DNA from: Escherichia phage vB_vPM_PD06
Length of the DNA stretch: 64,000 nucleotides
Direction: 5' to 3' (one strand)
Sequence record: NC_052653.1
The notes beneath the pieces were generated by a model. It was not told where the DNA came from, ran no database searches, and saw only the letters and a program-made list of their open reading frames with translations. Positions 3,632-58,539 of this stretch are shown here, piece after piece; positions within the stretch are counted from its first letter, which is position 1; every line of letters starts with the position of its first letter. The position numbers were made by a program, and so were the translations under genes.

Positions 3632-4018
3632 TTATTCAATATAAATCAAATTATCTTCACCAATGTAAGCCGACACGTTCGGCATAAACTTAGCTGCATT
3701 GGTTAGGCGGTTCGCCGTGTTAGTGGTGTATATTTCAGGGCGATCCCAAAAGCCTACGCCGTGACCGTTACGGGTAAAATGTAAATCATTCCCGATCTGG
3801 TTGGCTGTTGCGCCGTCGCTCATTGCCTCAGAGATAGCGGCAAGATTAGCATTAATAAAGGCTGTTACATCCTGGGCGATCCGTTCGTCCGCGCTAGGAG
3901 AAAAATCATAATCGTCTAAGTTTTCAATAAAATTACCTTCATGATCCCTTGCTGATTCAGCAAAAATAAAGGCTTCTTTATAACCGTTGATGATTTCAAT
4001 AATCATTTCTGTTTTCAT
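3632..4018 (-). CDS. Hypothetical protein (about 128 aa; start uncertain, track ORF extends to 4105)
   Basis: Internal ATG at 4018 (MKTEMIIEI) preferred because the longer N-terminal extension overlaps a separate small ORF. Confidence 0.5.
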   Translation of the reverse strand: MKTEMIIEIINGYKEAFIFAESARDHEGNFIENLDDYDFSPSADERIAQDVTAFINANLAAISEAMSDGATANQIGNDLHFTRNGHGVGFWDRPEIYTTNTANRLTNAAKFMPNVSAYIGEDNLIYIE

Positions 4019-4067
4019 GCTGTACGCTCGACAATAATAATAGTTTGCGGGATCTCGTTTTCTACTA

Positions 4068-4229
4068 CTAACAAGGCTTTTTCTGTGTGATAGATATTTT
4101 AACACGTTGTAAAGTAGCGGTAAAATCTTTCATTTCATTATGCGCGGATTTAGTACAATGCCAGATCTCAGGTTTACCAATTTGCAAGCCGCGTAAAAAT
4201 TCCGTTTTACCTGTCTTATTCGTGATCAT
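4068..4229 (-). CDS. Small hypothetical protein (53 aa; not in ORF track)
   Basis: ATG at 4229 preceded by AAGGTG RBS; hand translation MITNKTGKTEFLRGLQ... has no internal stop. Confidence 0.3.
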   Translation of the reverse strand: MITNKTGKTEFLRGLQIGKPEIWHCTKSAHNEMKDFTATLQRVKISITQKKPC

Positions 4230-4239
4230 TTGTTTCACC

Positions 4240-4344
4240 TTAGCCGATACCGTGGGAAGATAGGATCATATTAGCCATAGTTGCAACCATTCCAACCGAT
4301 AATGCCATGCCAACTACTACAACCGTGAAAATTTTTTCTAACAT
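4240..4344 (-). CDS. Small hydrophobic peptide (34 aa)
   Basis: Track ORF 4240-4440 overlaps the element; internal ATG at 4344 has GAGGATGG RBS; MLEKIFTVVVVGMALSVGMVATMANMILSSHGIG is one predicted TM helix. Confidence 0.35.
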   Translation of the reverse strand: MLEKIFTVVVVGMALSVGMVATMANMILSSHGIG

Positions 4345-4362
4345 GATTCCATCCTCATTAAT

Positions 4363-4406
4363 GGGCGTTGCCTTATTGCCCCGCCCTATGTCGTACACTT
4401 TACCAG
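4363..4406 (-). repeat. Conserved box+hairpin intergenic element
   Basis: GGGCG...CGCCC hairpin then CTATGTCGTACACTTTACCAG. Confidence 0.55.
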
Positions 4407-4840: not shown

Positions 4841-5110
4841 CTATTTTTTCAAGCTCGACCAGTCAAAACACGGGGCGATCTCGTTAAAACTTGTGCCCTG
4901 TAAAGCACATAATTTTTTAGCAATAGCCGCCGTAACCTGGCGCTGTACGCGCGGATCTGCTACTGATTGGAGAAAGTAGGCGGTTTTATATGTGATCATG
5001 CTTTCGCCTGTTTCCTTGTTAACGTGATGCACTATTTTAGCCTTATCATCTTTTACCAGGGTGTAACCGGATTCGATGGCCTTGATTGCAACGTCCAATG
5101 ATATTTTCAT
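4841..5110 (-). CDS. Hypothetical protein (89 aa)
   Basis: Six-frame ORF. Confidence 0.6.
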   Translation of the reverse strand: MKISLDVAIKAIESGYTLVKDDKAKIVHHVNKETGESMITYKTAYFLQSVADPRVQRQVTAAIAKKLCALQGTSFNEIAPCFDWSSLKK

Positions 5111-5129
5111 GATTTACCTCTTTATTGAC

Positions 5130-5150
5130 GGCGGGGAATACTCCCCCGCC
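5130..5150 (-). repeat. GC-rich intergenic hairpin (element family)
   Basis: GGCGGGG-AATACT-CCCCCGCC. Confidence 0.45.
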
Positions 5151-5157
5151 TCATTAA

Positions 5158-5328
5158 TTATTCTTCATCGTCGCCGTTATAGTATTCAATGCCATTTTCA
5201 TCGGTTACGGTGATGTTAACACCACCGATAGTAACACGATCACGGGCAAATGTCATGGCTTCATTTAAATCTTCAGACCAAAAAATATTGTGACCTTTGC
5301 GCGATACGTAAAACATAGTCGGGATCAT
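5158..5328 (-). CDS. Small hypothetical protein (56 aa; not in ORF track)
   Basis: Hand translation MIPTMFYVSRKGHNIFW...NGDDEE with no internal stop; ATG at 5328 after AAAAGAGAAACAAATC; fills an otherwise empty gap. Confidence 0.4.
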   Translation of the reverse strand: MIPTMFYVSRKGHNIFWSEDLNEAMTFARDRVTIGGVNITVTDENGIEYYNGDDEE

Positions 5329-5351
5329 GATTTGTTTCTCTTTTGTTGTGA

Positions 5352-5393
5352 GCGGGAAACCATTTCCCGCCCTATGTGGTAAACTTTACTACG
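5352..5393 (-). repeat. Conserved box+hairpin intergenic element
   Basis: GCGGGAAA-CCA-TTTCCCGC then CCTATGTGGTAAACTTTACTAC. Confidence 0.65.
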
Positions 5394-5412
5394 TTGTTTG
5401 CGTGCTGTCAAA

Positions 5413-5697
5413 TTATTTTTTAATGTTTTGCCCTACAAAATTGATCACTTCCTTAAGCTGTCTCTCTGTCATGATCGTACCTGGTAACTCTTCTTTAATT
5501 TCTTCCGGTAAATAGATATTACCGCGCCAGGTTAACAAACAACCGTTTTGATCTTCGCAGATAGAATAAGAAAACATCCACTCGCAATCATTTTCAAGCT
5601 CCCAAAAACACAAAAAGTCTTCTTTCCCTAAGTTTTCAACGGTTAAACATAATCCGCGACGTGCTGCATAATTAGTTAGGCTTTTTGTGATTTTCAT
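5413..5697 (-). CDS. Hypothetical protein (94 aa)
   Basis: Six-frame ORF. Confidence 0.6.
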   Translation of the reverse strand: MKITKSLTNYAARRGLCLTVENLGKEDFLCFWELENDCEWMFSYSICEDQNGCLLTWRGNIYLPEEIKEELPGTIMTERQLKEVINFVGQNIKK

Positions 5698-5718
5698 GAT
5701 TTTTCTCTCTTCTGTTAG

Positions 5719-5761
5719 GCGGGGAAACCATTTCCCCGCTCTATGAGATACAATATATTAC
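5719..5761 (-). repeat. Conserved box+hairpin intergenic element
   Basis: GCGGGGAAA-CCA-TTTCCCCGC then TCTATGAGATACAATATATTAC. Confidence 0.65.
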
Positions 5762-5780
5762 TTATCAGGTGTGCTGTCAA

Positions 5781-6104
5781 TCAATAATCTTTAAGATTTT
5801 CTACATTTACAAAAGGGCGTTTATTTTCTAAGTTTTCGCCGTACCATTGCCCCATGTTGATTTCTGCGGTGCGCAACCAGGACATGCCGCGTTCTATCTT
5901 TTTGCTCGCAATGTCGATCCGGCTTTTGCATAGTGCTTTCGCTTGCAATGTAAAAACACTATTGCCCTGTAATGCTTCCAGGTCATCATGTGCAAGGCGG
6001 TATTCTTTAAAGCCTGATTCTATCATTTCAATCGCATCAAGGAAACGCGCACGATGATAGAAAAAATCAGAGTTATCCAAATAAACACCGATCACAGATT
6101 TCAT
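5781..6104 (-). CDS. Hypothetical protein (107 aa; start moved to internal ATG)
   Basis: ATG at 6104 (MKSVIGVYL) preceded by AAAAGGG RBS. Confidence 0.55.
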   Translation of the reverse strand: MKSVIGVYLDNSDFFYHRARFLDAIEMIESGFKEYRLAHDDLEALQGNSVFTLQAKALCKSRIDIASKKIERGMSWLRTAEINMGQWYGENLENKRPFVNVENLKDY

Positions 6105-6204
6105 AATTTTACCCTTTTGTTTGCGGCCTTTGCCGTTTTCAAGATATAGTTTAAAGCATAACAAAAAATTATCAAGCCTTTAAAGCGTACAACTATAAAA
6201 CCTA

Positions 6205-6324
6205 TTAAAACACAATGTATAATAACATGGCTATAGTAGCAATACAACATAAAACCATGCTTGTTTTCCTTCCTTCCTCATATGCTGGATTTATTACGCT
6301 ATACTGTACGGGAATAATTTTCAT
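6205..6324 (-). CDS. Small membrane peptide (39 aa; not in ORF track)
   Basis: ATG at 6324 after TTAAGGAAACAGC RBS; hydrophobic C-terminus CCIATIAMLLYIVF. Confidence 0.35.
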   Translation of the reverse strand: MKIIPVQYSVINPAYEEGRKTSMVLCCIATIAMLLYIVF

Positions 6325-6333
6325 GCTGTTTCC

Positions 6334-6429
6334 TTAATGTCTTAAAACGTGGTTTACAATAGAAACAAGCATACAGAAGAAAAAAGATCCTGTCAATAAG
6401 ATACCGAAAAATAAATGTAAATAGGGCAT
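6334..6429 (-). CDS. Small membrane peptide (31 aa; not in ORF track)
   Basis: ATG at 6429 after TTTAAGGAGTAAAACC RBS; MPYLHLFFGILLTGSFFFCMLVSIVNHVLRH. Confidence 0.35.
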   Translation of the reverse strand: MPYLHLFFGILLTGSFFFCMLVSIVNHVLRH

Positions 6430-6433
6430 GGTT

Positions 6434-6736
6434 TTACTCCTTAAAAAAATCATTGACAATTAAACTGATAACGCCCAGCACCAGATCACCAGGTAGCGCC
6501 GCGCTTTCGTTGTTGCTTGTTTGCACTTCCTCACTAGTACCCGCATGATAGATCGCATGGTAAGCAATAGTATAATAACCTTTCGTTATTTCTTTAAGAT
6601 TAATGATTAGCACGTTATTTGTTTCATCTTGAAACAATTTAGCGGTGATAGTATTGTTTTCTTTTACACTATCGACTTTTATTGATGGATCATTTACACC
6701 AGAAAAAAGAAAAAACGTTTTAGCTATGCCGTTCAT
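6434..6736 (-). CDS. Hypothetical protein (100 aa)
   Basis: Six-frame ORF. Confidence 0.6.
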   Translation of the reverse strand: MNGIAKTFFLFSGVNDPSIKVDSVKENNTITAKLFQDETNNVLIINLKEITKGYYTIAYHAIYHAGTSEEVQTSNNESAALPGDLVLGVISLIVNDFFKE

Positions 6737-47221: not shown

Positions 47222-48994
47222 GTGTCTTATGTTGTAAATAAATATGGGTATAACATTGACCTAAGTCAAGAAGGACATACTGGGTGTCCTCGTTGTATGA
47301 AAGGAGGGCGTGATCGATCACAAAACAATTTGATGGTATACGGCTTAGATGCCGATGAAGACCATCGAGGCGCACATTGTTTTTCTTGTGGCTTTACTAT
47401 CCCTGATCAAAAATGGTTAAATGCACACGGCGAAGAAATTGAAGAGGAGGATATCTTGGGTAGTGAGTTTAATCCAGAAGTACATGATAAACTAAAAGCC
47501 AGCACTGGAACTAATCCAAAAGGTTATCGCGGTATTCGTGAAGATATCTCTAAACCTTTCGGTGTACGCTATATGTACGATGAAGCTACTGGCGAAGTAA
47601 TTTCAACACTATACCCTACAACTAAAGATTACAATATTGCTGGGTATAAACAACGTATTGATCCAAAAGATTTTTCGCATCCTATCGGTGAAACAGGAAA
47701 GGATTGTGATCTCTTTGGGGAGTTTAAATATCGTAACCACAGCGGTACTATTCTAATCGTTGGTGGTGAACACGATATGCTGGCTGCAACACAGATGCTA
47801 AAAGATTATAACAAGGGCGGTAAATATCCTGTTCCTGCTGTAGTATCTGGTACTTGTGGCGAAACATCTCTGCATAAGCAGCTTCAACATCGTTATAAAT
47901 TCTTAGATCAATTTAAAAAGATTGTTCTGTGTATGGATAATGATGAAGCTGGACGTGCAGCAGTTGAGAAATGTGTTAAAATCTTACCACGTAATAAAGT
48001 TTACGTGATGGAACTAACAGATGTTAAAGATCCTAACCAGGCACTAGTAGAAGGAAAAATTGATCACTTTCTTGATCGCTTTTTCAAAGCTAAACTGTAC
48101 ACACCTGCTGGTGTTTATGCTTCTAACGTACTGTATGAAGCAGCCTTGGAATGTCTGGAAGCTAAAATGATTACTCTTCCTCCATTCATGCGTGTTGCTT
48201 CTAATATGTTAGGTGGAGGCTTGGTAGAAGAAGAAATTACTGTTATACTTGCAAAAACAAGTATTGGTAAGACACTGTTGGTTAACGAGATTACGAAACA
48301 CATTATTCTTGCACACCCAGAACATACTCTTGGTATTTTATCTTTGGAGGCAACGTATAAGAAGTATTCTCGTAACTTACTGTCTTCATTCTTGCACATC
48401 CCTCTTCACCGTAAAACAAAAGAAGAGAAGGAAAAGATTTTAAAAGATAATGAAGAAAAGATTCGTGATTTTTACGAACGAGAAGATGGAACACCACGTT
48501 TCTATGTTTGTGATGATCGTGGAGCTAACGTAGATGTGATTAAAGAGAAGGTTCTGGAAATGATTATTTATTTCGGAGTAACCATTCTTGTTATCGACCC
48601 TTATTCTGATTTGCTTTCTGGTATGGACGTGTCACAACAAGAGGAACTTGCGACGTGGCTCAAACGCATTATGAAAGAGTACGCAATTACCATTGTTGTA
48701 ATTTCACACGTTAAAAAGTCTTCTAACAATAGTAATGAACATATTGTAGAAGATGATGCAATGGGTAGTAGCTTCCTTGCTAAAGGTGCTGGTATCACAA
48801 TTGCGCTGGAGCGTGATAAACAAGCTGAAGATCCTATGGAACGTAACCGCACATATTGCTACATTCTAAAGAACCGTGAGTTCTCAGAGACTGGTGCAGC
48901 AGGTAGTTTCTTCTATGAGATTAAAACAGCTACACTTCACGATTACGATCAATACACAAGTAACCCAGAGAATATTCCTGATGGTTCTTATTAA
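47222..48994 (+). CDS. Bifunctional primase-helicase (T7 gp4-like)
   Basis: Zinc ribbon CPRCMKGG...CFSCGF; helicase Walker A ILAKTSIGKT; GTG start after TAGGAGAA. Confidence 0.75.
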   Translation: MSYVVNKYGYNIDLSQEGHTGCPRCMKGGRDRSQNNLMVYGLDADEDHRGAHCFSCGFTIPDQKWLNAHGEEIEEEDILGSEFNPEVHDKLKASTGTNPKGYRGIREDISKPFGVRYMYDEATGEVISTLYPTTKDYNIAGYKQRIDPKDFSHPIGETGKDCDLFGEFKYRNHSGTILIVGGEHDMLAATQMLKDYNKGGKYPVPAVVSGTCGETSLHKQLQHRYKFLDQFKKIVLCMDNDEAGRAAVEKCVKILPRNKVYVMELTDVKDPNQALVEGKIDHFLDRFFKAKLYTPAGVYASNVLYEAALECLEAKMITLPPFMRVASNMLGGGLVEEEITVILAKTSIGKTLLVNEITKHIILAHPEHTLGILSLEATYKKYSRNLLSSFLHIPLHRKTKEEKEKILKDNEEKIRDFYEREDGTPRFYVCDDRGANVDVIKEKVLEMIIYFGVTILVIDPYSDLLSGMDVSQQEELATWLKRIMKEYAITIVVISHVKKSSNNSNEHIVEDDAMGSSFLAKGAGITIALERDKQAEDPMERNRTYCYILKNREFSETGAAGSFFYEIKTATLHDYDQYTSNPENIPDGSY

Positions 48995-49490: not shown

Positions 49491-52400
49491 ATGGGAGCTT
49501 TTACTTTCGACATTGAAAGTAACAACTTGCTTAATGACGAAAGTGTAGATTACTTGGCAAGTCCATATCGTTTAAAAGATAGTTTTGCAATGCACTGTAT
49601 TGTGTGCGAAAGTCATGATACTGGAGAGATTATTGCTTTCCATGATGGTGATAAATATCTTTTCGATGGTCGTCCGTATATTGAGACTGACGGAAAGTAT
49701 GAATACCGACTGGAGGAATATGAGCATTTAGAATATACCCATTTCCCTCTTAAAGATTTTCCTGATTTTGTAAATGGAACAGGTAAATTTAAAGGTAATT
49801 CAAACTATAAAATTACCAAAGTAGTTGGACACAACATCATTAACTTCGACTTACTGGCAATTAAATTATTTTTTAAACTCAACTACAGTATTAAGTACAA
49901 TACTTGGGGTAATAGTAACATTGAAATTTGTGATACTATGATCTTAAGTAAGACACTAAACCCTGATCGCTTCGGTGGTCATAGTCTGGCAGAGTTATCT
50001 AAGAAAGCTGGAGGGGATGTTAAAATTGATTTTAGAAAAAACATTCCTGAAACTGAAAGATTTAGAACATTTGCAGCAGATATGCTGTATTACTGTATTT
50101 ACGATAACAAAGCTAACACCGCAGTGTTCCGTTATTTGATGGAAGAGTGGGGTGATTATAACAAGTGGTCTGAACCATTTAACTTAGAACAACGTGTAGC
50201 TGATATTATTACACGTCAAGAGCACCGTGGCTTTGCTTTCAATATGAAACAAGCAGAAGATAATATTCGTGATCTGGATGCTCGAATGGAAGCATGTCGT
50301 TTAGAGGCAGAACCTGTGCTACCTCCTAAACCTGCTACTAAAGGTTATTTGAAATCATTCATTCCACCTAAACTACAGTTTAAAAAGAATGGTGAGCCTT
50401 CAAGTAACATGATAAAGTTTGCAGAGAAACATTCTGGTGAACTTGTACAAAAAGAAGATGGTTGGTGGTTATTTGCATTAGGTAAAGAGTTTAAACTACC
50501 TATTCCAGCAGAAGAACCTATTTGTGATCCTACAGTACCTGCTACTTTAGACGACACTACACATATTAAAAATTGGTTAGTTGGTTTAGGTTGGAGTCCA
50601 TCTGAATATAAAGATAAAGATATCACTCTTAAATCTGGCACTAAGATTAAGAAAGATGAAGCACAAATGGAGAAAGCTATTCGTGACTATGTTGATCAAA
50701 CATTAGCATCTAACTTCTGCCAGGATAGATGTGATCATCTGGAGTGCACACCAGAAACTTTGGAATGGAAACTAAGAGATCGTATTGCTAAAGCTAAAGG
50801 TCGTGGTGTTAAAGTGCTTACTAACCCTTCCTTTACAAAAGGGCAAGAGAAGGATATTTGTCCTAACTTGGAAGCACTGGGTGAAAAGTTCCCTTATGCT
50901 ACGCAGATTGTGCAGTATCTTACGTATAAACATCGTAGAAACTCTATTCTAGGTGGTGGTGCTGATTGGGAAGAGGATGAAGAGGATTACGATAAAGGTT
51001 ATCTGGCGGCAGTAAGAGCTGATGGTCGTATACCAACTCCTGCTGCAACGTGTGATGCAGCTACGTCTCGTATGAAACATAGGTTAGTAGCAAATATCCC
51101 ACGTGTAACATCTCTGTACGGATATGAAATGCGTAACTTATTTGGTGTAGAAGTTCCAAAATACTTCCAAATTGGTTATGACTTTGATTCTCTTGAGGCA
51201 AAAATAGAATCACACTACTGTGTACCTATGGATGCACAAGCACTAACCCGTAAAGGTTGGGTTGGTTATCACGATCTACAAGAAGGGGATGAAATCTTAG
51301 GATATAACCCAGAAACAGGACTTAAAGAATGGACTAAAGTAAAAGGTAAGGTCTTCTATAAAAATAGTAAGACGTTTGAGATTAAAGGAAAATCCCATAC
51401 TTATCGTGCAACAGCAGATCACCGTTGGTATGTTAATACTCGTAGTACAGGGAATACTTATGTGCCTAAAGTCAGAACAACTGCCGAGCTTTGCACAGGA
51501 GATAACATTATTTGTAATGCTCCATTTAACATGGAACAAGATCAAGTAAATAGTTTAACTTCTGTTCAACAAGGTAAATGGGATGTTCCGTGGGTAGAAC
51601 GTGTAGTTAATATGTCTCATGCCGAGCGTGTGGCTTTCTTGGAAGGTTTTTTGATTGCGGATGGTTACTGGCACAAACATAAACAAAAACCTGTTTGGCG
51701 CTGGGCGCAGAACCCAGGAGAACTTTTTGAAGCAGCCTTAACTGCCTCATACCTGGTTCATGGGGGTAATATTTCTGTAGCCTTCAATACGAAAGACCAG
51801 AAAGTAAAAGTGGCAACGTTGGCTAACCGCTCTCACATCCCTGTTCAAAGTCTGACTATTGAAGAATGGGGTGTAGAAGATGTTTGGTGTCCACAAACAG
51901 AACTCGGTACATGGGTTATGCGTCAGAAAGACTGCATCACGATTACAGGGAATTGTTGGCGGTACGAGCAGGAACCACACGAATATTGTAATGCTCTATT
52001 GTTGGAAAAACCTAATGATGTTCATACAATGATGGCTCGACGTATTTCTGACACTATTGGTCGTAAGTTTGAACGAAGCCCTGCTAAATCTGTTAAGTAT
52101 GGTATTACTTATGGTGCTCAAGCTGCAAAAGTAGCAAAAACTATAGGTAGTGATATGTATACAGGACAGCTTGTATACGATGCTTTCTGGGAAGCTGCAA
52201 AACCTCTTGCGCTTCTTAAAGAACGTCTGCATGACTTTTGGGTTAAAACAGGTAAGAAATACATTCTTGGTATTGATGGTAGGAAAGTACCTACACGATC
52301 TGCACACGCAATACTTAACTCTCTGTTCCAGAGTGGTGGTGTTATTTGTGCAAAAAGAGCAATGGTTATCTACGATGATCTTATCGAAGAAGAAGGATTA

Positions 52401-52805
52401 GCTGTTGACTTTTTTGTTGATGACTGGAAAAATAAGTCATTCGTTCAACAAATGATTGCATATCACGATGAAGCACAGCTTGAAGTAACTCGTGATCTGG
52501 TGCATTTTAAATGGTTCTCTAAAGAATCTTTAGGTTGGACTCAAGTTGATGATCCAGAAGAACAAAAGAAAATTGATAAAGAATGTTTGGATAAAGTTAA
52601 TGCCTGGAAAGAAGAGGAAGAGAAACGTACTGGCAAGATTTGGGCTAACGTACATGAATCTCCGAAAGGTGGTTGGTTTACAGCCTACAGTCGTGCTGGA
52701 GAATTAGCATCTATCGCTGTTAATAAAGCTGGTGAGTATTACAATCTTAATGTACCTCTAACTGCTGGTTACGATGTTGGTAGTTCATGGTCAACTTGTC
52801 ACTGA
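49491..52805 (+). CDS. Family A DNA polymerase, intein-containing precursor
   Basis: Exo I TFDIES; motif A GYDFDSLEAKIESHY; motif B RSPAKSVKYGITYGAQ; motif C IAYHDEAQ. Confidence 0.85.
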   Translation: MGAFTFDIESNNLLNDESVDYLASPYRLKDSFAMHCIVCESHDTGEIIAFHDGDKYLFDGRPYIETDGKYEYRLEEYEHLEYTHFPLKDFPDFVNGTGKFKGNSNYKITKVVGHNIINFDLLAIKLFFKLNYSIKYNTWGNSNIEICDTMILSKTLNPDRFGGHSLAELSKKAGGDVKIDFRKNIPETERFRTFAADMLYYCIYDNKANTAVFRYLMEEWGDYNKWSEPFNLEQRVADIITRQEHRGFAFNMKQAEDNIRDLDARMEACRLEAEPVLPPKPATKGYLKSFIPPKLQFKKNGEPSSNMIKFAEKHSGELVQKEDGWWLFALGKEFKLPIPAEEPICDPTVPATLDDTTHIKNWLVGLGWSPSEYKDKDITLKSGTKIKKDEAQMEKAIRDYVDQTLASNFCQDRCDHLECTPETLEWKLRDRIAKAKGRGVKVLTNPSFTKGQEKDICPNLEALGEKFPYATQIVQYLTYKHRRNSILGGGADWEEDEEDYDKGYLAAVRADGRIPTPAATCDAATSRMKHRLVANIPRVTSLYGYEMRNLFGVEVPKYFQIGYDFDSLEAKIESHYCVPMDAQALTRKGWVGYHDLQEGDEILGYNPETGLKEWTKVKGKVFYKNSKTFEIKGKSHTYRATADHRWYVNTRSTGNTYVPKVRTTAELCTGDNIICNAPFNMEQDQVNSLTSVQQGKWDVPWVERVVNMSHAERVAFLEGFLIADGYWHKHKQKPVWRWAQNPGELFEAALTASYLVHGGNISVAFNTKDQKVKVATLANRSHIPVQSLTIEEWGVEDVWCPQTELGTWVMRQKDCITITGNCWRYEQEPHEYCNALLLEKPNDVHTMMARRISDTIGRKFERSPAKSVKYGITYGAQAAKVAKTIGSDMYTGQLVYDAFWEAAKPLALLKERLHDFWVKTGKKYILGIDGRKVPTRSAHAILNSLFQSGGVICAKRAMVIYDDLIEEEGLAVDFFVDDWKNKSFVQQMIAYHDEAQLEVTRDLVHFKWFSKESLGWTQVDDPEEQKKIDKECLDKVNAWKEEEEKRTGKIWANVHESPKGGWFTAYSRAGELASIAVNKAGEYYNLNVPLTAGYDVGSSWSTCH
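51219..51953 (+). mobile_element. Intein (about 245 aa) with LAGLIDADG-like motif, after Pol motif A
   Basis: Begins CVPMDAQALTRKGW; TxxH block TADH; LEGFLIADGYW; ends ITITGN + Cys (non-canonical GN; C-terminal boundary approximate). Confidence 0.65.
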
Positions 52806-52832
52806 CATCTCTTTGATTTTAAAGGAGTTTTT

Positions 52833-53429
52833 ATGCTTACCGTGTATGGTGAAGGTATTAATGATTTGGAAGGCGAGAGTACACTACCTGGTAGTAAGAA
52901 ACTAACGCCGCATTATATGAAATGGATGGCTATGTTGGGGAGGTGTTACTCCCCTTGTCAACAAGAACGTGATCCTTGTTATAAGGGGGTGACGGTTTGT
53001 GAAGAATGGAAGTTGTTCTCCAATTTCTATTCCTGGTTGCAAACTTGGGATAACTGGGAAAACTTAGAACTTGATAAAGATATTATAGGAGGGAGAGTTT
53101 ACTCTCCCGATACCTGTCTTTTAGTAACAGGAGATCTTAATAAGTTCTTAGCTTATAGAGTAAGTAAAAGATCTCATGGGACTATGGTAGGCTGTAGTTA
53201 CGAGAAAGATCGTAAAAAGTATAAAGCCAACATAAAAGTAGGCAGTCGCATGAAAACGCTGGGACGTTTTAATACTGAAATTGAAGCGCATCTTTGCTGG
53301 TTGAAAGCTAAGGCAGAGCAGCTTACAAAATTCTTTGAAACTGAAGATGAAAGAGTTGTTCCACATCTTAAAGCACTATGTAATGAAATGCTTGAGCATG
53401 TAGAACAACATAAAGAGTGGACACGATAG
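52833..53429 (+). CDS. AP2-like DNA-binding protein, possible homing-endonuclease relative
   Basis: KYKANIKVGSRMKTLGRFNTEIEAHLCWLKA resembles AP2 domain; no catalytic motif identified. Confidence 0.4.
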   Translation: MLTVYGEGINDLEGESTLPGSKKLTPHYMKWMAMLGRCYSPCQQERDPCYKGVTVCEEWKLFSNFYSWLQTWDNWENLELDKDIIGGRVYSPDTCLLVTGDLNKFLAYRVSKRSHGTMVGCSYEKDRKKYKANIKVGSRMKTLGRFNTEIEAHLCWLKAKAEQLTKFFETEDERVVPHLKALCNEMLEHVEQHKEWTR

Positions 53430-53437
53430 GAGAAAAT

Positions 53438-54031
53438 ATGAATATTGAAGATCAAAAAGTACGAGCTTTAGAAGTATTACGTATGTGCCAACTGGTAGAT
53501 CCGTTTGCAATTGTAGCTGGCGGCGCTGTACGCGACTGGCGATTAGAAACACCTGCGCAAGATATTGACATTTACTTGCGTATGCCTAACCACAATACAA
53601 CCGTACTGGTAGAGAAATTTTTGATGTTGGGTGTTGGTGCACGTAATGTTAAACAACTTACTAAGCAAACAGAACACACTTATGCCGAACTACCACATTT
53701 GAAATGGGTATTTGAAGCATACTATAAAGATCTTAAGTTTAACTTTATGATCATGGAAGAAGGTGTACGCAGTGAAATCGTATGGAACTTTGACGTAGCT
53801 ATTTGCCTGTGTTACTGGGATGGTCTAAATTATGTATATCATCCAGATTTTGAATTTGCATTGAAAACTAATATTTGCACTATTAATCACCGATACACAG
53901 GTAAAGAAGCACACGTCCGTAAAATGGCAGAACGTTTCCCTATGTTCCGCTTTGTAAAAGACGTTTTCATTCCCAAAGAACCAGAAGTACGTACACTGGA
54001 TTCGTTTAACAACGAAGAATTTAAGATTTAA
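53438..54031 (+). CDS. Small nucleotidyltransferase (poly(A) polymerase/CCA-adding head-domain-like)
   Basis: GGAVRD...DIDIY motif. Confidence 0.5.
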   Translation: MNIEDQKVRALEVLRMCQLVDPFAIVAGGAVRDWRLETPAQDIDIYLRMPNHNTTVLVEKFLMLGVGARNVKQLTKQTEHTYAELPHLKWVFEAYYKDLKFNFMIMEEGVRSEIVWNFDVAICLCYWDGLNYVYHPDFEFALKTNICTINHRYTGKEAHVRKMAERFPMFRFVKDVFIPKEPEVRTLDSFNNEEFKI

Positions 54032-54034
54032 GTG

Positions 54035-54064
54035 TTGACAAACCTTACAATTATGTGTTATTAT
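54035..54064 (+). promoter_or_regulatory. Sigma70-type promoter with extended -10
   Basis: TTGACA, 18-bp spacer, TGtTATTAT. Confidence 0.55.
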
Positions 54065-54074
54065 GAGGACTTGA

Positions 54075-54473
54075 ATGACAGACAATCGTTCTAAAATCTT
54101 AGTCGAGACGTTCTACAGTAGAGAAACTAATCGTCTTGAACTAACTAAAAAAGATGTTGAACCTCAAGATAATACCTTTTTTATTCAAATACTATGTCTC
54201 TTTGGTGGATACAACCGTTTAACAGTGCGGGTAGAAGACAAAGAGATATCTGAAACCACTATCACAAAACGTGAACTAATGCTACTACAGGACACAATAC
54301 GAGATGTTTTGGACAATCCTGGAAAAGCAAAAGTAATTAACCTTGGTGGAGAAAAGATACAAATTCTCCATTTTGAAAGTGGTGAAATAGGATTTGGTAT
54401 TGGTCTTGGTAAATACCTGTTGGAAGAAACTGACGCTACTCTTTTACGAGAGTTTTGTGTTAAAGTAATGTAA
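54075..54473 (+). CDS. Hypothetical protein (132 aa)
   Basis: Six-frame ORF downstream of promoter. Confidence 0.6.
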   Translation: MTDNRSKILVETFYSRETNRLELTKKDVEPQDNTFFIQILCLFGGYNRLTVRVEDKEISETTITKRELMLLQDTIRDVLDNPGKAKVINLGGEKIQILHFESGEIGFGIGLGKYLLEETDATLLREFCVKVM

Positions 54474-54489
54474 TTATAGAGGAGAATTT

Positions 54490-55437
54490 ATGCCAGTAAT
54501 TAATTCTGAAATCGACCGTCGTACTAAAAAAGAAGCATTCTGGGCTGAAGGTATTGTCGAATATGTCAAACTAGATAAGTTTGATGAAATGAAAGTCTCT
54601 TATATTAAGGTTGCAGGTCAACCAGATAAGAAAATTGAATCAACTCACAAAGCATCTCTGCTTATTAAAGAGAAAGGTGCTGGTGCTGATGATAAAGGTG
54701 TTTGGGTTAGCCTAGGTGAAGTTAAACTGCACCCAGAACATGAAAACCTGCAAGTTAAAGATGGTGATAAGTGGGTTACTATCGAAAAAGGTGTAGAATT
54801 AACTATGGATGTTAAACCTTCCGAATGGAATGGCAAAACATACTACAATTCCTCTAAAGGTAAAATCACTATTCTTTCAACAGAAGGTGTTCAGCAAGCA
54901 CAATCCTCTTCAAAAGGTGGAAATAAGCCATCTAATAATGACGGTAGCAAGCCTAACTACAAAAAACGTGATACCGTAGGGATTGAAACAGGACACGCTG
55001 TAAACGGCGCTCTGGAGCTTCTACGTGCTGGTGTGAAAGGTGATGCTTTCGACTTGGCTGGTGTGGTACAATCTGCAACTGTTACTCTGAAAGCTGAAAT
55101 TGCTAAAGATCGTGGCGTTGATGTGACTGATTATGATCTTGGTGCTTCAGTTGGACACGCAATTCTTAACGCTTGTCGTGATCATACAGGTAAAACTGTA
55201 ACGGCAGAAGAGATTATTGAAGCTGCTCGTGAAGTTCTTGCTTTGTCTGATAAAGTAGCTGCTGCTATCCGTGGAATGTCTACTCCAGTACAAGAAGTTA
55301 AGAAAGAAACTAAAAAAGTAGAGAAGAAAGAGCCAGCACCGAAAGAACCAGAACCTGTTGTTCAAGATTTCGATGATGATATCCCATTTGCTCCTATTGG
55401 TTTGCAATATGGTCGAAACTTCCTGCACTGTTTCTAA
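54490..55437 (+). CDS. SSB-like protein with acidic DFDDDIPF motif
   Basis: DFDDDIPF near C-terminus, followed by 15 more residues ending in Phe; N-terminal region not clearly a canonical OB fold. Confidence 0.4.
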   Translation: MPVINSEIDRRTKKEAFWAEGIVEYVKLDKFDEMKVSYIKVAGQPDKKIESTHKASLLIKEKGAGADDKGVWVSLGEVKLHPEHENLQVKDGDKWVTIEKGVELTMDVKPSEWNGKTYYNSSKGKITILSTEGVQQAQSSSKGGNKPSNNDGSKPNYKKRDTVGIETGHAVNGALELLRAGVKGDAFDLAGVVQSATVTLKAEIAKDRGVDVTDYDLGASVGHAILNACRDHTGKTVTAEEIIEAAREVLALSDKVAAAIRGMSTPVQEVKKETKKVEKKEPAPKEPEPVVQDFDDDIPFAPIGLQYGRNFLHCF

Positions 55438-55460
55438 TAGTTAAATATTGTGTGAATATA

Positions 55461-55485
55461 AGGAGCCTAACGGCTCCTTTTCTTT
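55461..55485 (+). terminator. Intrinsic terminator
   Basis: AGGAGCC-TAAC-GGCTCCT then TTTCTTTG. Confidence 0.6.
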
Positions 55486-55497
55486 GAAGGAGATATA

Positions 55498-56229
55498 ATG
55501 AGCGAATTTGTAAACAACACTGCATTAAACTACCTGCAAACCCTCGAAAGCAATAGTGTAGATTTGATTCTTACTGACCCACCATATGCTATTTCTCGTG
55601 ACACAAATTTTCAATCTGGAGAGCCTACTGGAAAAGATACGGATAGATTCCGTGTATCTTACAACTTTGGTGACTGGGACGTTGTAGATATTCCTTACTT
55701 TAAAGAAGTATTCAAAGAAGCCTATAGGGTGCTTAGAAAAGGTGGTACTTGCATAGTTTGGTATGATATCTGGAAGATCCAGGAGCTACGTGAAATCCTT
55801 GAACCGCTTGGTTTTCGTATGTTCCGTACTATTGAATGGATTAAAACAAACCCTGTACCCATCAACAGTGGTGTTAACTACCTTAGTAACGCTAAAGAGA
55901 TGGCTATTGTTTGTGTTAAAGGTTCGAAGCCAACCTTCAATGCTTCCTACCATAAGGGTGTGTTTGAGTATCCTATCTATCAAGGAGCAGATCGTTTTCA
56001 TCCGACACAAAAACACTTGACTTTGTTTTGTGACCTTATTAATATACATACCAACGAAGGAGATGTAGTCTTAGACTTCTTCTCTGGAAGTGCAACAACA
56101 CAAGTTGCGGCACTTTTAACAGGTAGAGAATACTTAGGCTGTGAAGCCGATGTAAATATTTTTAAGCAAGCGGAGGAACGACTAAATGAGTACACTGAAC
56201 AGCAAAATCACCCTGAAAGCACTGATTAA
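55498..56229 (+). CDS. DNA N6-adenine (or N4-cytosine) methyltransferase
   Basis: LILTDPPYAIS (DPPY) and FFSGSATT. Confidence 0.7.
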   Translation: MSEFVNNTALNYLQTLESNSVDLILTDPPYAISRDTNFQSGEPTGKDTDRFRVSYNFGDWDVVDIPYFKEVFKEAYRVLRKGGTCIVWYDIWKIQELREILEPLGFRMFRTIEWIKTNPVPINSGVNYLSNAKEMAIVCVKGSKPTFNASYHKGVFEYPIYQGADRFHPTQKHLTLFCDLINIHTNEGDVVLDFFSGSATTQVAALLTGREYLGCEADVNIFKQAEERLNEYTEQQNHPESTD

Positions 56230-56617
56230 CAACGGTATGAATTTGGACTCTGGTCTGTCTCCAAAGATTTCTATGGCACGACTGGAACAAGTTACTGGTC
56301 TTCGTCAAGTAAGTAATGGCGGTAAGATTATTCGTGATGACGCTGTACCTTTTAATAAATTTCAGATTGAACGTCACTACGATCCTGTAACTGCAAGTCT
56401 TACTGGTGTAACTTTCTCAGGTTATCGTACTGCTGGATACCAACGTAAGGTTGTAGCTGAACGTATTAAGAGTCGCAAACAGAAAATTGCAACATTGAAG
56501 AAACTGGTAGAGAAAGATGTTTCAGAACTTCTTAACTTGTATGAAACTCTTGAAACAAAAGGTGAAAATCATAAACTCTTCTCTAAAGAAGATGTGAGCG
56601 TAATTTTCACTGATTAA
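56186..56617 (+). CDS. Hypothetical protein (143 aa)
   Basis: ATG after GGAGGAACG; 44-nt out-of-frame overlap with MTase 3' end. Confidence 0.55.
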   Translation: MSTLNSKITLKALINNGMNLDSGLSPKISMARLEQVTGLRQVSNGGKIIRDDAVPFNKFQIERHYDPVTASLTGVTFSGYRTAGYQRKVVAERIKSRKQKIATLKKLVEKDVSELLNLYETLETKGENHKLFSKEDVSVIFTD

Positions 56618-56620
56618 GAT

Positions 56621-56655
56621 AAAAGAAAAGGAGCCAATAGGCTCCTTTTTGTTTA
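56621..56655. terminator. Bidirectional terminator between convergent units
   Basis: A-run, GGAGCC-AATA-GGCTCC, T-run. Confidence 0.6.
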
Positions 56656-58539
56656 TGTAACATTGACTGTAAATCTGACAAGAGGTGATAACACGTCATT
56701 ATCAGCATCATAATGTGCAACATCAAACACTGCTGTACCTGCTGCAAACCCGTATTGTTCAACCTGATCTGCATAAGTAAATGTGTAAGTGTTAGTATCA
56801 AGAGTTTGTTCTGTAAGAATTGCTGCTGTGAGGACGTTTACATTTCGGAAGTAATGTTTGGTATATCCTGCTGGTTCCCAAGAAATAATTGCATCTTGGT
56901 TAGCTTGTCTTACAGCGGCTCCTCCTGTTGGAACAGCCATATCAACCCAAACAGGTGACGTTGATGTTAGGTCTGTACCGTCTGCTGCTGATTTAGCAAG
57001 TTTTGTAGCTGCTGTCTGGTATATAGAAGAAATATAATGGATACGACCATCAATACCTTCTTCATAAACATAACCACTGTAGCGTTCAGCACCATCCACC
57101 CAAGAACCAATGATAACATCGTCACGTGCTGTAGAGATGGTTCTTTGTACATTTCTGTATTTCTGCCAATCCACACCATTAACTTCTACACCATATAGAT
57201 AAGAACGTCCTAGGATCTGCCAAACAATTTTTGCTTGAGAAGCAGGAACTATTGTACGCATCTTATCAAAGATAGCTATCGTAGCATCATGGTAACGTGT
57301 AGTGTTACTGTATCTACCTGCAACAGTCGAAGATGCTGATACAGCATCATTTTCACCTTGTCCCCAAATAATTGCTTTAACCTTACTTGCATAAGGTGTG
57401 ACTTTAGTGATAAAGTTAGTTAAGCATGGCCCGTCTGCTGTGTTATCCAGATCATACCAGTAGTTGTCTGGTGTACCTGTTCCGGCTTTATCATCTGCAT
57501 ATTTATCTGCTGCTGACGATCCAGAAGCTGCATTTAACGGAAGAACTTCAGCATTTGCTAAACCACGTTGCGTAGCATATGCATTACGGGTTGTTGTGCT
57601 ACTCATTGCTGCTTTATTTGCACCAGATAATTCTGTAAAGTGTGCATTTACGTTATCTTGTCCAGCAAAGACAATAACTTCTTTAATGAATGAATCATCT
57701 GTAGCTATTGAGTTATTAAAGATAACGGCTGCTGCTTTGGTGCTCTTAACGCTAATTTTAAGGTATGTTGGAGCAAACCCATAAAGAGGAATAGAGTCAG
57801 AGATATCAAAGTAGGCGTAAGTATTCGTGGTTGTTGTAGTCCACTGGACACTGTTATTACTTAAATCTAATACTTCTACAGTATAAGTATCACCATCTAG
57901 CGGATCAGCTACATCCCAAGCAACACGAATGTCTCCATAGCTGTTTGCCACGGCTGTTACATTAGAAATAACAGGAACAGCATTAACACCTAAATAAGAA
58001 CTATCAGAGGCCACCACTGTTCCTTGATAAGTTGCAGTGCAACCTATACGGCAACTGCCATCTTTAAGAGCAGTTATTAATCCTGTAGGACTTACAGTAG
58101 CTACTTCTGGATCTGTTGTGGTGTACGTAATTACCATATCTGGAAGGTCTTTAGCACCTTCTGGACTGATTGTAGCAACCAATTGTTGAGTAGTTCCTGC
58201 ATCCATAGCAGACAGACTTTCAGTGTACACACTTAATTCTGAAGCATAGCCACCAGATTGATCAGTTAAGACAGCACCTAAATTATTTTTAGCTGTCATT
58301 ATTGCATCAAAACCGCCTTCAGCAACAAACTCCATCATACCGTTATTATCTATAACCATTTTGGTATTATCTGAAGATGAAAAAGCTATATCAAATAACG
58401 CACCATCTTCTGGTGAAACTGTGTATGTCAGTTGCTTTTTACTACCAACTATTGCAATACCAATAGAGGAAGTGGTTATAGATGTAGCTGTTACTACTGA
58501 AGCTGATGTTGTTGACATAAATAAAGGAATAGGATACAT
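56653..58539 (-). CDS. Tail fiber/tailspike protein with Ig-like and SGNH/SASA esterase-like domains
   Basis: Big_2-like repeats; GQDN and WGQGEND resemble sialate O-acetylesterase motifs. Confidence 0.55.
   Translation of the reverse strand: MYPIPLFMSTTSASVVTATSITTSSIGIAIVGSKKQLTYTVSPEDGALFDIAFSSSDNTKMVIDNNGMMEFVAEGGFDAIMTAKNNLGAVLTDQSGGYASELSVYTESLSAMDAGTTQQLVATISPEGAKDLPDMVITYTTTDPEVATVSPTGLITALKDGSCRIGCTATYQGTVVASDSSYLGVNAVPVISNVTAVANSYGDIRVAWDVADPLDGDTYTVEVLDLSNNSVQWTTTTTNTYAYFDISDSIPLYGFAPTYLKISVKSTKAAAVIFNNSIATDDSFIKEVIVFAGQDNVNAHFTELSGANKAAMSSTTTRNAYATQRGLANAEVLPLNAASGSSAADKYADDKAGTGTPDNYWYDLDNTADGPCLTNFITKVTPYASKVKAIIWGQGENDAVSASSTVAGRYSNTTRYHDATIAIFDKMRTIVPASQAKIVWQILGRSYLYGVEVNGVDWQKYRNVQRTISTARDDVIIGSWVDGAERYSGYVYEEGIDGRIHYISSIYQTAATKLAKSAADGTDLTSTSPVWVDMAVPTGGAAVRQANQDAIISWEPAGYTKHYFRNVNVLTAAILTEQTLDTNTYTFTYADQVEQYGFAAGTAVFDVAHYDADNDVLSPLVRFTVNVT

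Follow-up and report, generated by a model that had tools for sequence, protein, structure and literature searches.

A probable IPA-HNH homing-endonuclease-type gene and a minimal nucleotidyltransferase gene assigned to the Gad2 family beside the DNA polymerase gene of a phi92-like coliphage

The stretch of DNA analysed here (the window) comprises 64,000 nucleotides (nt) of Escherichia phage vB_vPM_PD06, sequence record NC_052653.1. Over the region of interest it is 93-98.5% identical to phi92-like E. coli myophages, with vB_vPM_PD114 as the best match, and the source phage belongs to this same group (Justusliebigvirus, Stephanstirmvirinae). Two open reading frames (ORFs) on the plus strand, lying directly after the gene of the family-A DNA polymerase, are the subject of this work. 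ORF A (52833..53429, 198 amino acids, aa) is a free-standing gene of the IPA-HNH/AP2 homing-endonuclease type, located between polA and ORF B. ORF B (53438..54031, 197 aa) encodes a minimal class-II-type nucleotidyltransferase, consisting of a head and a short neck, which can be assigned to the Gad2 family PF26128. Both ORFs lie where a sequence-only reading of the window had placed them, and the GGAVRD...DxD motif which that reading described is present in ORF B.

The polymerase gene polA (49491-52805, plus strand) follows a T7 gp4-like primase-helicase gene (47222-48994, plus strand) and a small ORF. The gap between the polA stop and the ORF A start is 27 nt, and ORF A has its own AAGGAG. 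The ATG of ORF B is at 53438, and its AGGAG is overlapped by the ORF A stop codon. No separating terminator and no sigma-70-like promoter better than chance was found among polA, ORF A and ORF B, and no terminator-like site was found in 52300-54600. On the same strand, ORF B is followed by a 132-aa ORF, a 315-aa protein with the tail of a single-stranded DNA-binding protein (SSB), and then a DNA N6/N4 methyltransferase. ORF A and ORF B are two unrelated genes, and neither has a paralog elsewhere in the window. In the RefSeq records of PHB05, alia and VEcB they are labelled ‘HNH endonuclease’ and ‘nucleotidyltransferase’, respectively, and both are ordinary members of already described kinds.

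The IPA-HNH homing endonuclease genes (HEGs) were defined from gp59, gp115-116 and gp209 of Vibrio phage ICP1 (Barth, Dunham & Seed 2023, PMC10448857). Their products combine a C-terminal AP2 domain with an N-terminal HNH-like domain visible to HHsearch only, the link to HNH being that of the authors’ own HHsearch (PMC10448857). Such genes are enriched in Barbaviruses, and 29% of them adjoin DNA polymerase genes (PMC10448857). ORF A matches ICP1 gp209 in BLASTP (E=6e-23, 32% identity over 178 aa), also in tblastn, and in hhalign (99.8%, E=7.7e-30). Because of this clear homology, ORF A is a member of the IPA-HNH group. It shares with the ICP1 proteins a C-terminal AP2 domain and probably the N-terminal HNH-like domain that Pfam HNH_3 misses, and like genes of that group it is free-standing, variable among isolates and, as in 29% of the family, polymerase-adjacent. 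The differences from gp209, beyond the modest identity, are its location in E. coli Justusliebigvirus, at the spacer between polA and the nucleotidyltransferase gene, and a loop after the DKD motif that is two residues shorter in the clade of ORF A.

Genes of this type are widespread. By tblastn, 2637 copies of ORF A-type genes were located across 1551 phage records, frequently as multiple copies in a single genome. Phapecoctavirus nieznany and a Rheinheimera Barbavirus likewise have homologs placed directly after polA (73% identity in the former), so that this arrangement is found in three phage genera. In Rheinheimera phage vB_RspM_barba_12-6C (MT497241.1; locus L005, 3962-4615), the homolog that directly follows the DNA polymerase gene is annotated ‘tRNA nucleotidyltransferase’. 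The same gene is labelled HNH endonuclease or DNA-binding protein in other Barbavirus records, and the label in MT497241.1 is almost certainly an annotation-transfer error.

ORF A has no match in Pfam or NCBIfam, and phmmer against the PDB sequences returned chance matches only. It matches PHROG 953 ‘HNH endonuclease’ with E=2e-73, covering positions 198-399 of the 420-column profile, and further HNH-annotated PHROGs match residues 22-109 and 109-172 separately. A search of 5.8 billion proteins yielded 122 homologs, mostly of 190-220 aa. Additional zinc-ribbon modules (DUF723, DUF4379) are found at the N-terminus of some of them, and for some an AP2 match is on record. The partial coverage of the PHROG 953 profile raised the idea that ORF A is an N-terminally truncated HEG, which was rejected, since nearly all homologs are likewise of 190-220 aa. 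The AlphaFold model (predicted local distance difference test, pLDDT, 92) has a helical N-terminal part followed by a beta-beta-alpha element. Three strands and a long helix at residues 121-168 form an AP2 fold, which means that the AP2 call of the sequence-only reading is correct at fold level. On the plus strand, the C-terminal AP2/ERF-fold DNA-binding domain (residues about 119-168) corresponds to 53187..53336, and the divergent HNH-like domain predicted at the N-terminus (residues about 20-110) to 52890..53162.

The same reading had found no recognisable nuclease motif in ORF A. In this respect, it appears to have missed the divergent HNH-like domain, whose putative centre is D81-K82-D83...N103. 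The beta-beta-alpha core (residues 78-106; 53064-53150, plus strand) is modelled as strands 78-81 and 96-99 and helix 100-106, and contains both D81-K82-D83 (53073-53081) and N103 (53139-53141). Among 94 aligned family sequences, the invariant residues are Y50, W59, F65, W68, D81, K82, D83, Y90, C95, N103 and G120. The Pfam HNH profile matches neither ORF A nor any of these homologs. The classical HNH_3-AP2 endonucleases of phages, cyanobacteria and ciliates (Magnani et al. 2004, as cited in PMC10448857) have the same order of nuclease and then AP2. When the ORF A family was compared by hhalign with eight canonical HNH_3-AP2 proteins from related loci, the alignment was collinear and not significant (E=0.22). 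It runs through the second strand, the helix Asn, a linker of about 15 residues and the first AP2 strand ‘GV’, placing TCxFV...N of ORF A on NLRxxT...N. In this register, the invariant N103 pairs with the last HNH_3 Asn. The canonical motif is D-H-x-D-G-N...N-N...N-L, whereas ORF A has L-D-K-D...Y-S-P-x-x-C instead, without the catalytic His. Taken together, the model and the conserved residues suggest that ORF A carries a divergent HNH-like nuclease domain.

In its genomic behaviour, ORF A resembles an HEG, with variable presence, decay products and adjacency to an essential gene. Of 53 Justusliebigvirus records, 26 contain a full ORF A; in the other 27, a decayed remnant occupies its place. 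For instance, phi92 lacks ORF A and retains at the site a ribosome-binding site (RBS), an ATG and a stretch of about 83 nt that is about 70% identical to the ORF A 3′ end. This remnant, 137 nt in total, contains a frameshift and early stops; essentially the same remnant as that of phi92 is found in a metagenomic relative. The part kept in HEG-less relatives corresponds to the 3′ end of ORF A (53344..53429, plus strand), a stretch that includes the stop codon as well as the RBS of ORF B, and the presence of this RBS may explain its retention. The suggestion of an AP2-type DNA-binding domain in ORF A, such as free-standing homing endonucleases carry, is borne out by the fold, by the homology and by the presence/absence pattern.

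Comparison of seven genomes with the HEG and six without it, over 51954-55900 of the window, placed all 26 fixed differences inside 53344-53424, with none in polA or ORF B. As fixed differences are confined to the element, the two alleles are old and freely shuffled against their flanks. Where present, ORF A is under purifying selection, the ratios of synonymous to non-synonymous codon differences being 17:6 and 11:5. ORF A also behaves as a mobile element independent of the intein in the neighbouring polA, for all four intein/HEG combinations exist: +/+ in the window, +/- in phi92, -/+ in PHB05 and -/- in locus L011. This intein of 245 aa (51219-51953; C577...N821, then C822) contains a LAGLIDADG-like motif (VAFLEGFLIADGY). 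It is present in phi92 and missing from PHB05, VEcB and others, which have an 860-aa polymerase. Mismatches between the window and phi92 number 0-1 per 200 nt from 51100 to 52700 and 2-10 per 200 nt elsewhere, and this low value suggests a recently shared intein or a co-conversion tract.

ORF B contains the motif VAGGAVRDW-x7-DIDIY in its translation, and the catalytic motif A (A27-G28-G29-A30-V31-R32-D33-W34 ... D42-I43-D44) occupies 53516..53569 on the plus strand. In the family, G28, G29, W34, D42 and D44 are invariant, and the invariant or near-invariant set as a whole comprises Q6, A10, A27, G28, G29, A30, R32, D33, W34, D42, D44, Y82, K162 and F167. A word-indexed search gave one protein, and exhaustive representative and profile searches were needed, of which the former found 460 relatives among 1.84 billion representatives, nearly all of 175-230 aa. 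ORF B matches PHROG 1614 ‘nucleotidyltransferase’ with E=6e-34. In BFVD, the nearest viral structures belong to phage proteins of 137-215 aa whose labels read nucleotidyltransferase, poly(A) polymerase head or tRNA nucleotidyltransferase. Among solved structures, poly(A) polymerase I and CCA-adding enzymes (344-517 aa) come closest. ORF B lacks body and tail domains, consisting of the head and a stub of the neck. In other words, ORF B is, to judge from motif and modelled fold, a stand-alone class-II Pol-beta-type nucleotidyltransferase head with the metal-binding motif A GG...DxD, and the earlier description of a minimal nucleotidyltransferase agrees with this.

In sequence, the relationship of ORF B to the CCA-adding and poly(A) enzymes is confined to motif A. 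The Pfam PolyA_pol (PF01743) head model gives E=0.0016 and 19.2 bits, under the gathering threshold of 23, and the NCBIfam CCA equivalog models give 13.7 bits against cut-offs of 281-290. In the AP2 and PolyA_pol profile searches, which the sequence-only reading had proposed as a check, Pfam AP2 is matched by 13 of the 94 aligned ORF A homologs and not by ORF A itself, and ORF B stays below the PolyA_pol threshold. Against PDB sequences, phmmer with ORF B returned chance matches only, and the profile gave marginal (E~0.1) motif-A matches to CCA-adding enzymes. With E. coli Cca and PcnB, hhalign aligned motif A only, over 24-52 columns, and motifs B (RRD) and D (EDxxR) were not detectable in that comparison. 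ORF B is half the size of class-II CCA-adding/poly(A) polymerases or less, with no detectable motifs B-E. Proteins of a comparable kind are the stand-alone head-domain protein NP_344798.1 of S. pneumoniae (PDB 2la3, 191 aa) and the small nucleotidyltransferases of Autographiviridae, Pectobacterium and Dickeya phages, likewise stand-alone head-domain proteins. Identity to ORF B is 9-20% for most of these, and no activity has been demonstrated for any.

A closer relationship was found with Gad2. The precomputed Pfam family PF26128 ‘Gad2’ (E<=1e-5) is recorded on a protein that is 98% identical to ORF B (P0001) and on distant homologs. Gad2, a protein of 400 aa in which a nucleotidyltransferase domain is predicted, was described as Gabija anti-defence protein 2 (Yirmiya et al., bioRxiv 10.1101/2023.05.01.538930). 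In SPbetaL7, knockout of Gad2 leads to Gabija sensitivity; a homolog from Brevibacillus inhibits Gabija when expressed in trans; and the Gad2 of SPbetaL7 is itself toxic (bioRxiv 10.1101/2023.05.01.538930). The ORF B family profile aligns by hhalign with the verified Brevibacillus laterosporus Gad2 (sequence from the supplementary table of that preprint) at 88.8%, E=2.5e-6, over 110 columns, with residues 22-148 of ORF B on residues 25-138 of Gad2. BLASTP against the same Gad2 gives E=2e-4. At the level of profiles, the fit is far better than that to Cca or PcnB, and on its sequence ORF B can be placed in the Gad2 family PF26128. The two proteins share AGG...D-x-D-x-Y, a Q-containing strand and the F-D-x-x-x-C of the N-terminal domain. 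Gad2 has I-T-S where ORF B keeps the R-D-W of the GGxxRD motif typical of CCA-adding and poly(A) polymerase enzymes, and with 394-400 aa it is much longer than the 197-aa ORF B, which ends at about Gad2 residue 170. Their settings also differ, Gad2 being found in the anti-defence locus of a temperate Bacillus phage and ORF B in the replisome operon of a lytic coliphage. A Gad2-family nucleotidyltransferase of P. putida phage Emajogi lies beside a primase-helicase gene and is cytotoxic when overexpressed.

The genomic neighbourhood of ORF B relatives was sampled in 80 IMG/VR loci within a radius of 8 kb. A gp4-like primase-helicase is encoded in 58 of them and PolA in 37, both mostly on the same strand, and an ORF A-type gene is present in 15. 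A tRNA gene occurs within 8 kb in 10 of the 80 loci, and there is none in the 64-kb window. According to a paper on Pectobacterium Autographiviridae phages, ‘tRNA nucleotidyltransferase’ genes are similarly placed in 37 of 46 phages of that group. In T7-type replisome modules, made up of primase-helicase, PolA and an SSB-like protein, ORF B is an accessory gene that has been conserved. Two further observations concern individual members of the family. Metagenomic phage contig L010 encodes two paralogous Gad2-family nucleotidyltransferases (3636-4400, 254 aa, and 6001-6615, 204 aa), and a Dam-type DNA methyltransferase gene lies directly 3′ of the first. On a phage contig of 63-199 kb (L008), an IS605 OrfB/TnpB-like gene (4906-5949) lies directly 5′ of a distant ORF B homolog, and RtcB and a GIY-YIG gene lie about 3 kb 3′ of it.

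The explanation that is favoured, as a probable and by no means secure one, is that ORF A is a selfish gene of the IPA-HNH homing-endonuclease type and that ORF B is a Gad2-family nucleotidyltransferase, rather than an enzyme of CCA-adding tRNA repair. In this scheme, ORF A would have invaded the intergenic spacer between polA and the nucleotidyltransferase gene and decayed to the 137-nt remnant in about half of the relatives. Its AP2 domain would bind a specific DNA site, and in co-infected cells the D81-K82-D83...N103 centre may nick or cut genomes without the HEG close to the junction of polA and ORF B. Repair of the cut HEG-less genome would then copy ORF A in. ORF B, for its part, would catalyse Mg-dependent nucleotidyl transfer from an NTP to a 3′-OH or another acceptor. 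Such a transfer may serve to safeguard or aid the replication of phage DNA; by analogy with Gad2, the most plausible opponent would be a Gabija-type defence. A more far-reaching version, which is doubtful, holds that the head-only enzymes of about 190 aa are the minimal Gad2 core, a replisome-embedded class that would shield replicating phage DNA from Gabija-like immunity sensing ends or nucleotides. The acceptor of the nucleotidyl transfer would in that case be DNA or primer ends, or a defence protein. As a separate idea of the same standing, IPA-HNH proteins may cut through a His-less D-K-D...N beta-beta-alpha-metal site.

Several observations weigh against the favoured explanation. As regards ORF A, homing or nuclease activity is undemonstrated for any IPA-HNH member, as the authors themselves state (PMC10448857). 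The alignment with the HNH_3-AP2 proteins is non-significant, and ORF A has no conserved His: in the register of that same alignment, the canonical catalytic His position holds the invariant K82 or D81. No co-conversion tract linked to HEG status was detected in the flanks of the seven HEG-positive and six HEG-negative genomes. As regards ORF B, an Asn (N102) seems to stand where such enzymes usually have their third catalytic carboxylate; this position, mapped from secondary structure only, holds Q in 80% of the family. The PF26128 assignment passes through the 98%-identical protein, and the local Pfam copy, apparently lacking that model, gave no match for ORF B. Moreover, the C-terminal approximately 230 residues of Gad2 are missing from ORF B, so that the anti-Gabija activity may not carry over, and a 2026 review gives the Gad2 mechanism as unknown. 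The association with the replisome consists of counts without a formal null model. Finally, RNA repair does exist in this phage group, as the RNA ligase and phosphoesterase genes of PHB05 imply. The PHB05 genome has a cluster of ATPase, RNA ligase and phosphoesterase genes, a possible RNA-repair module (locus L093, 43050-44940), about 50 kb from its ORF B gene, and the genomes of such relatives further contain genes for a Sir2-like protein and for one resembling histidyl-tRNA synthetase.

The points raised against a nuclease also bear on a different view of ORF A. In this view, ORF A never was or no longer is a nuclease; it would be a DNA-binding regulator of AP2 type that has been domesticated, comparable with the CasPR repressors, which contain AP2/CapR, and its patchiness would reflect ordinary accessory-gene turnover. 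The replaced catalytic His, the undemonstrated activity of IPA-HNH proteins and the undetected co-conversion tract fit this view, phage AP2-domain proteins can be sequence-specific repressors, and purifying selection fits any function. It is nevertheless unlikely. The residues D81, K82, D83, Y90, C95 and N103 are invariant in 94 homologs down to about 30% identity, and such invariance in the beta-beta-alpha element speaks for an active site that is conserved. A patchy spread in multiple copies beside essential genes, the exact occupation of the spacer and the degenerate remnants are classic signatures of an HEG. For ORF B, the most serious competitor is a direct role in DNA replication or modification, in which it would extend or cap RNA primers or DNA 3′ ends produced by PolA and the gp4-type primase, or would supply an activated nucleotide with which the genome is modified. 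The tight synteny with primase-helicase, PolA and the SSB-like protein across diverse phages speaks for such a role, as do the DNA methyltransferases nearby in the window and in L010, and a similar proposal has been published for a nucleotidyltransferase in Gordonclarkvirinae replication loci. No other hypermodification genes are adjacent in the window, which counts against it, as does the fact that T7 replicates without an ORF B-type gene. This role is improbable.

The interpretation offered by the sequence-only reading was that ORF B modifies RNA 3′ ends, possibly in tRNA repair against host anticodon nucleases. In its general form, a minimal CCA-adding/poly(A)-type enzyme would repair or mature tRNA 3′ ends, for example after host tRNA-targeting defences, or add CCA to phage tRNAs. 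Its attraction is evident: the nearest solved structures are of this kind, GGAVRD...DxD is typical of CCA-adding and poly(A) enzymes, homologs of ORF B are often annotated ‘tRNA nucleotidyltransferase’, and PHB05 has the RNA ligase and phosphoesterase at 43-45 kb of its genome. In addition, one distant homolog lies about 2.8 kb from RtcB, and 11 tRNA genes were found near one locus. The body/tail domain of class-II enzymes holds the tRNA, and ORF B has none. Motif A alone aligns with Cca and PcnB, the PolyA_pol and NCBIfam CCA scores are sub-threshold, and the RNA ligase module of the relatives is far from the ORF B gene. Furthermore, tRNA genes are rare where primase-helicase genes are common. 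Because ORF B lacks the class-II means of holding tRNA and of selecting CTP and ATP, and because the gene travels with the replisome and not with RNA genes, CCA repair is the weakest alternative and distinctly unlikely. Together with the PF26128 assignment, this leaves the earlier interpretation partly supported, while the observation on which it was built is confirmed.

A further possibility is that ORF B is a host-shutoff enzyme like MenT, which would stop host translation by attaching nucleotides to the acceptor ends of host tRNAs or to other RNAs. The toxicity that recommends it was seen at high induction only, in distant homologs; the conserved placement in a replisome operon is atypical of early host-takeover genes; and ORF B is more like the class-II enzymes than like MenT. 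This possibility is very unlikely.

Additional features of the window and of related records were also observed. A near-consensus sigma-70-type promoter-like site, rated strong, lies at 54035-54064, between ORF B, whose stop it directly follows, and the 132-aa ORF, with TTGACA, an 18-nt spacer, TATTAT and an extended TG. The C-terminus of the 315-aa protein encoded two genes 3′ of ORF B (54490-55437) reads DFDDDIPF, which is the tail signature of bacterial SSB. The protein also matches SSB weakly in PHROG, its counterpart in phage JLBYU50 is annotated as a putative SSB, and the product is probably, from these similarities, a phage single-stranded DNA-binding protein. A mosaic hot spot (56500-57100 and 57700-58100) is located at the tail protein gene (56653-58539, minus strand). 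Mismatches with PHB05 there reach 49 per 200 nt, and an indel of about 226 nt distinguishes the window from phi92, in surroundings that are 97-99% identical. This hot spot is probably a result of receptor-binding module exchange. Four records named ‘Campylobacter phage A150/A145/C3/A110a’ (MG065639, MG065645, MG065656, MG065689) are 97-99% identical to phi92-like coliphages at the locus, and these ‘Campylobacter jejuni’ phage records are likely to have a mislabelled host or to represent contamination.

These findings correct the guess of tRNA repair for ORF B, which was plausible and poorly supported. A gene that is called ‘nucleotidyltransferase’ or ‘hypothetical’ in dozens of coliphages considered as therapeutic candidates is now tied to the Gad2 anti-Gabija family. 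Additionally, the intein and the HEG, occurring in all four combinations among phages that are otherwise more than 95% identical, constitute a clean natural presence/absence system, and these phages could be used directly to test IPA-HNH homing. Neither the Gad2 link nor the intein/HEG system is conceptually new. The remaining interest lies in the chemistry of the widespread head-only Gad2-type nucleotidyltransferases and in the His-less active site of IPA-HNH proteins. If the head-only enzymes should indeed represent the minimal Gad2 core, anti-Gabija activity would be far commoner in lytic coliphages than is now recognised.

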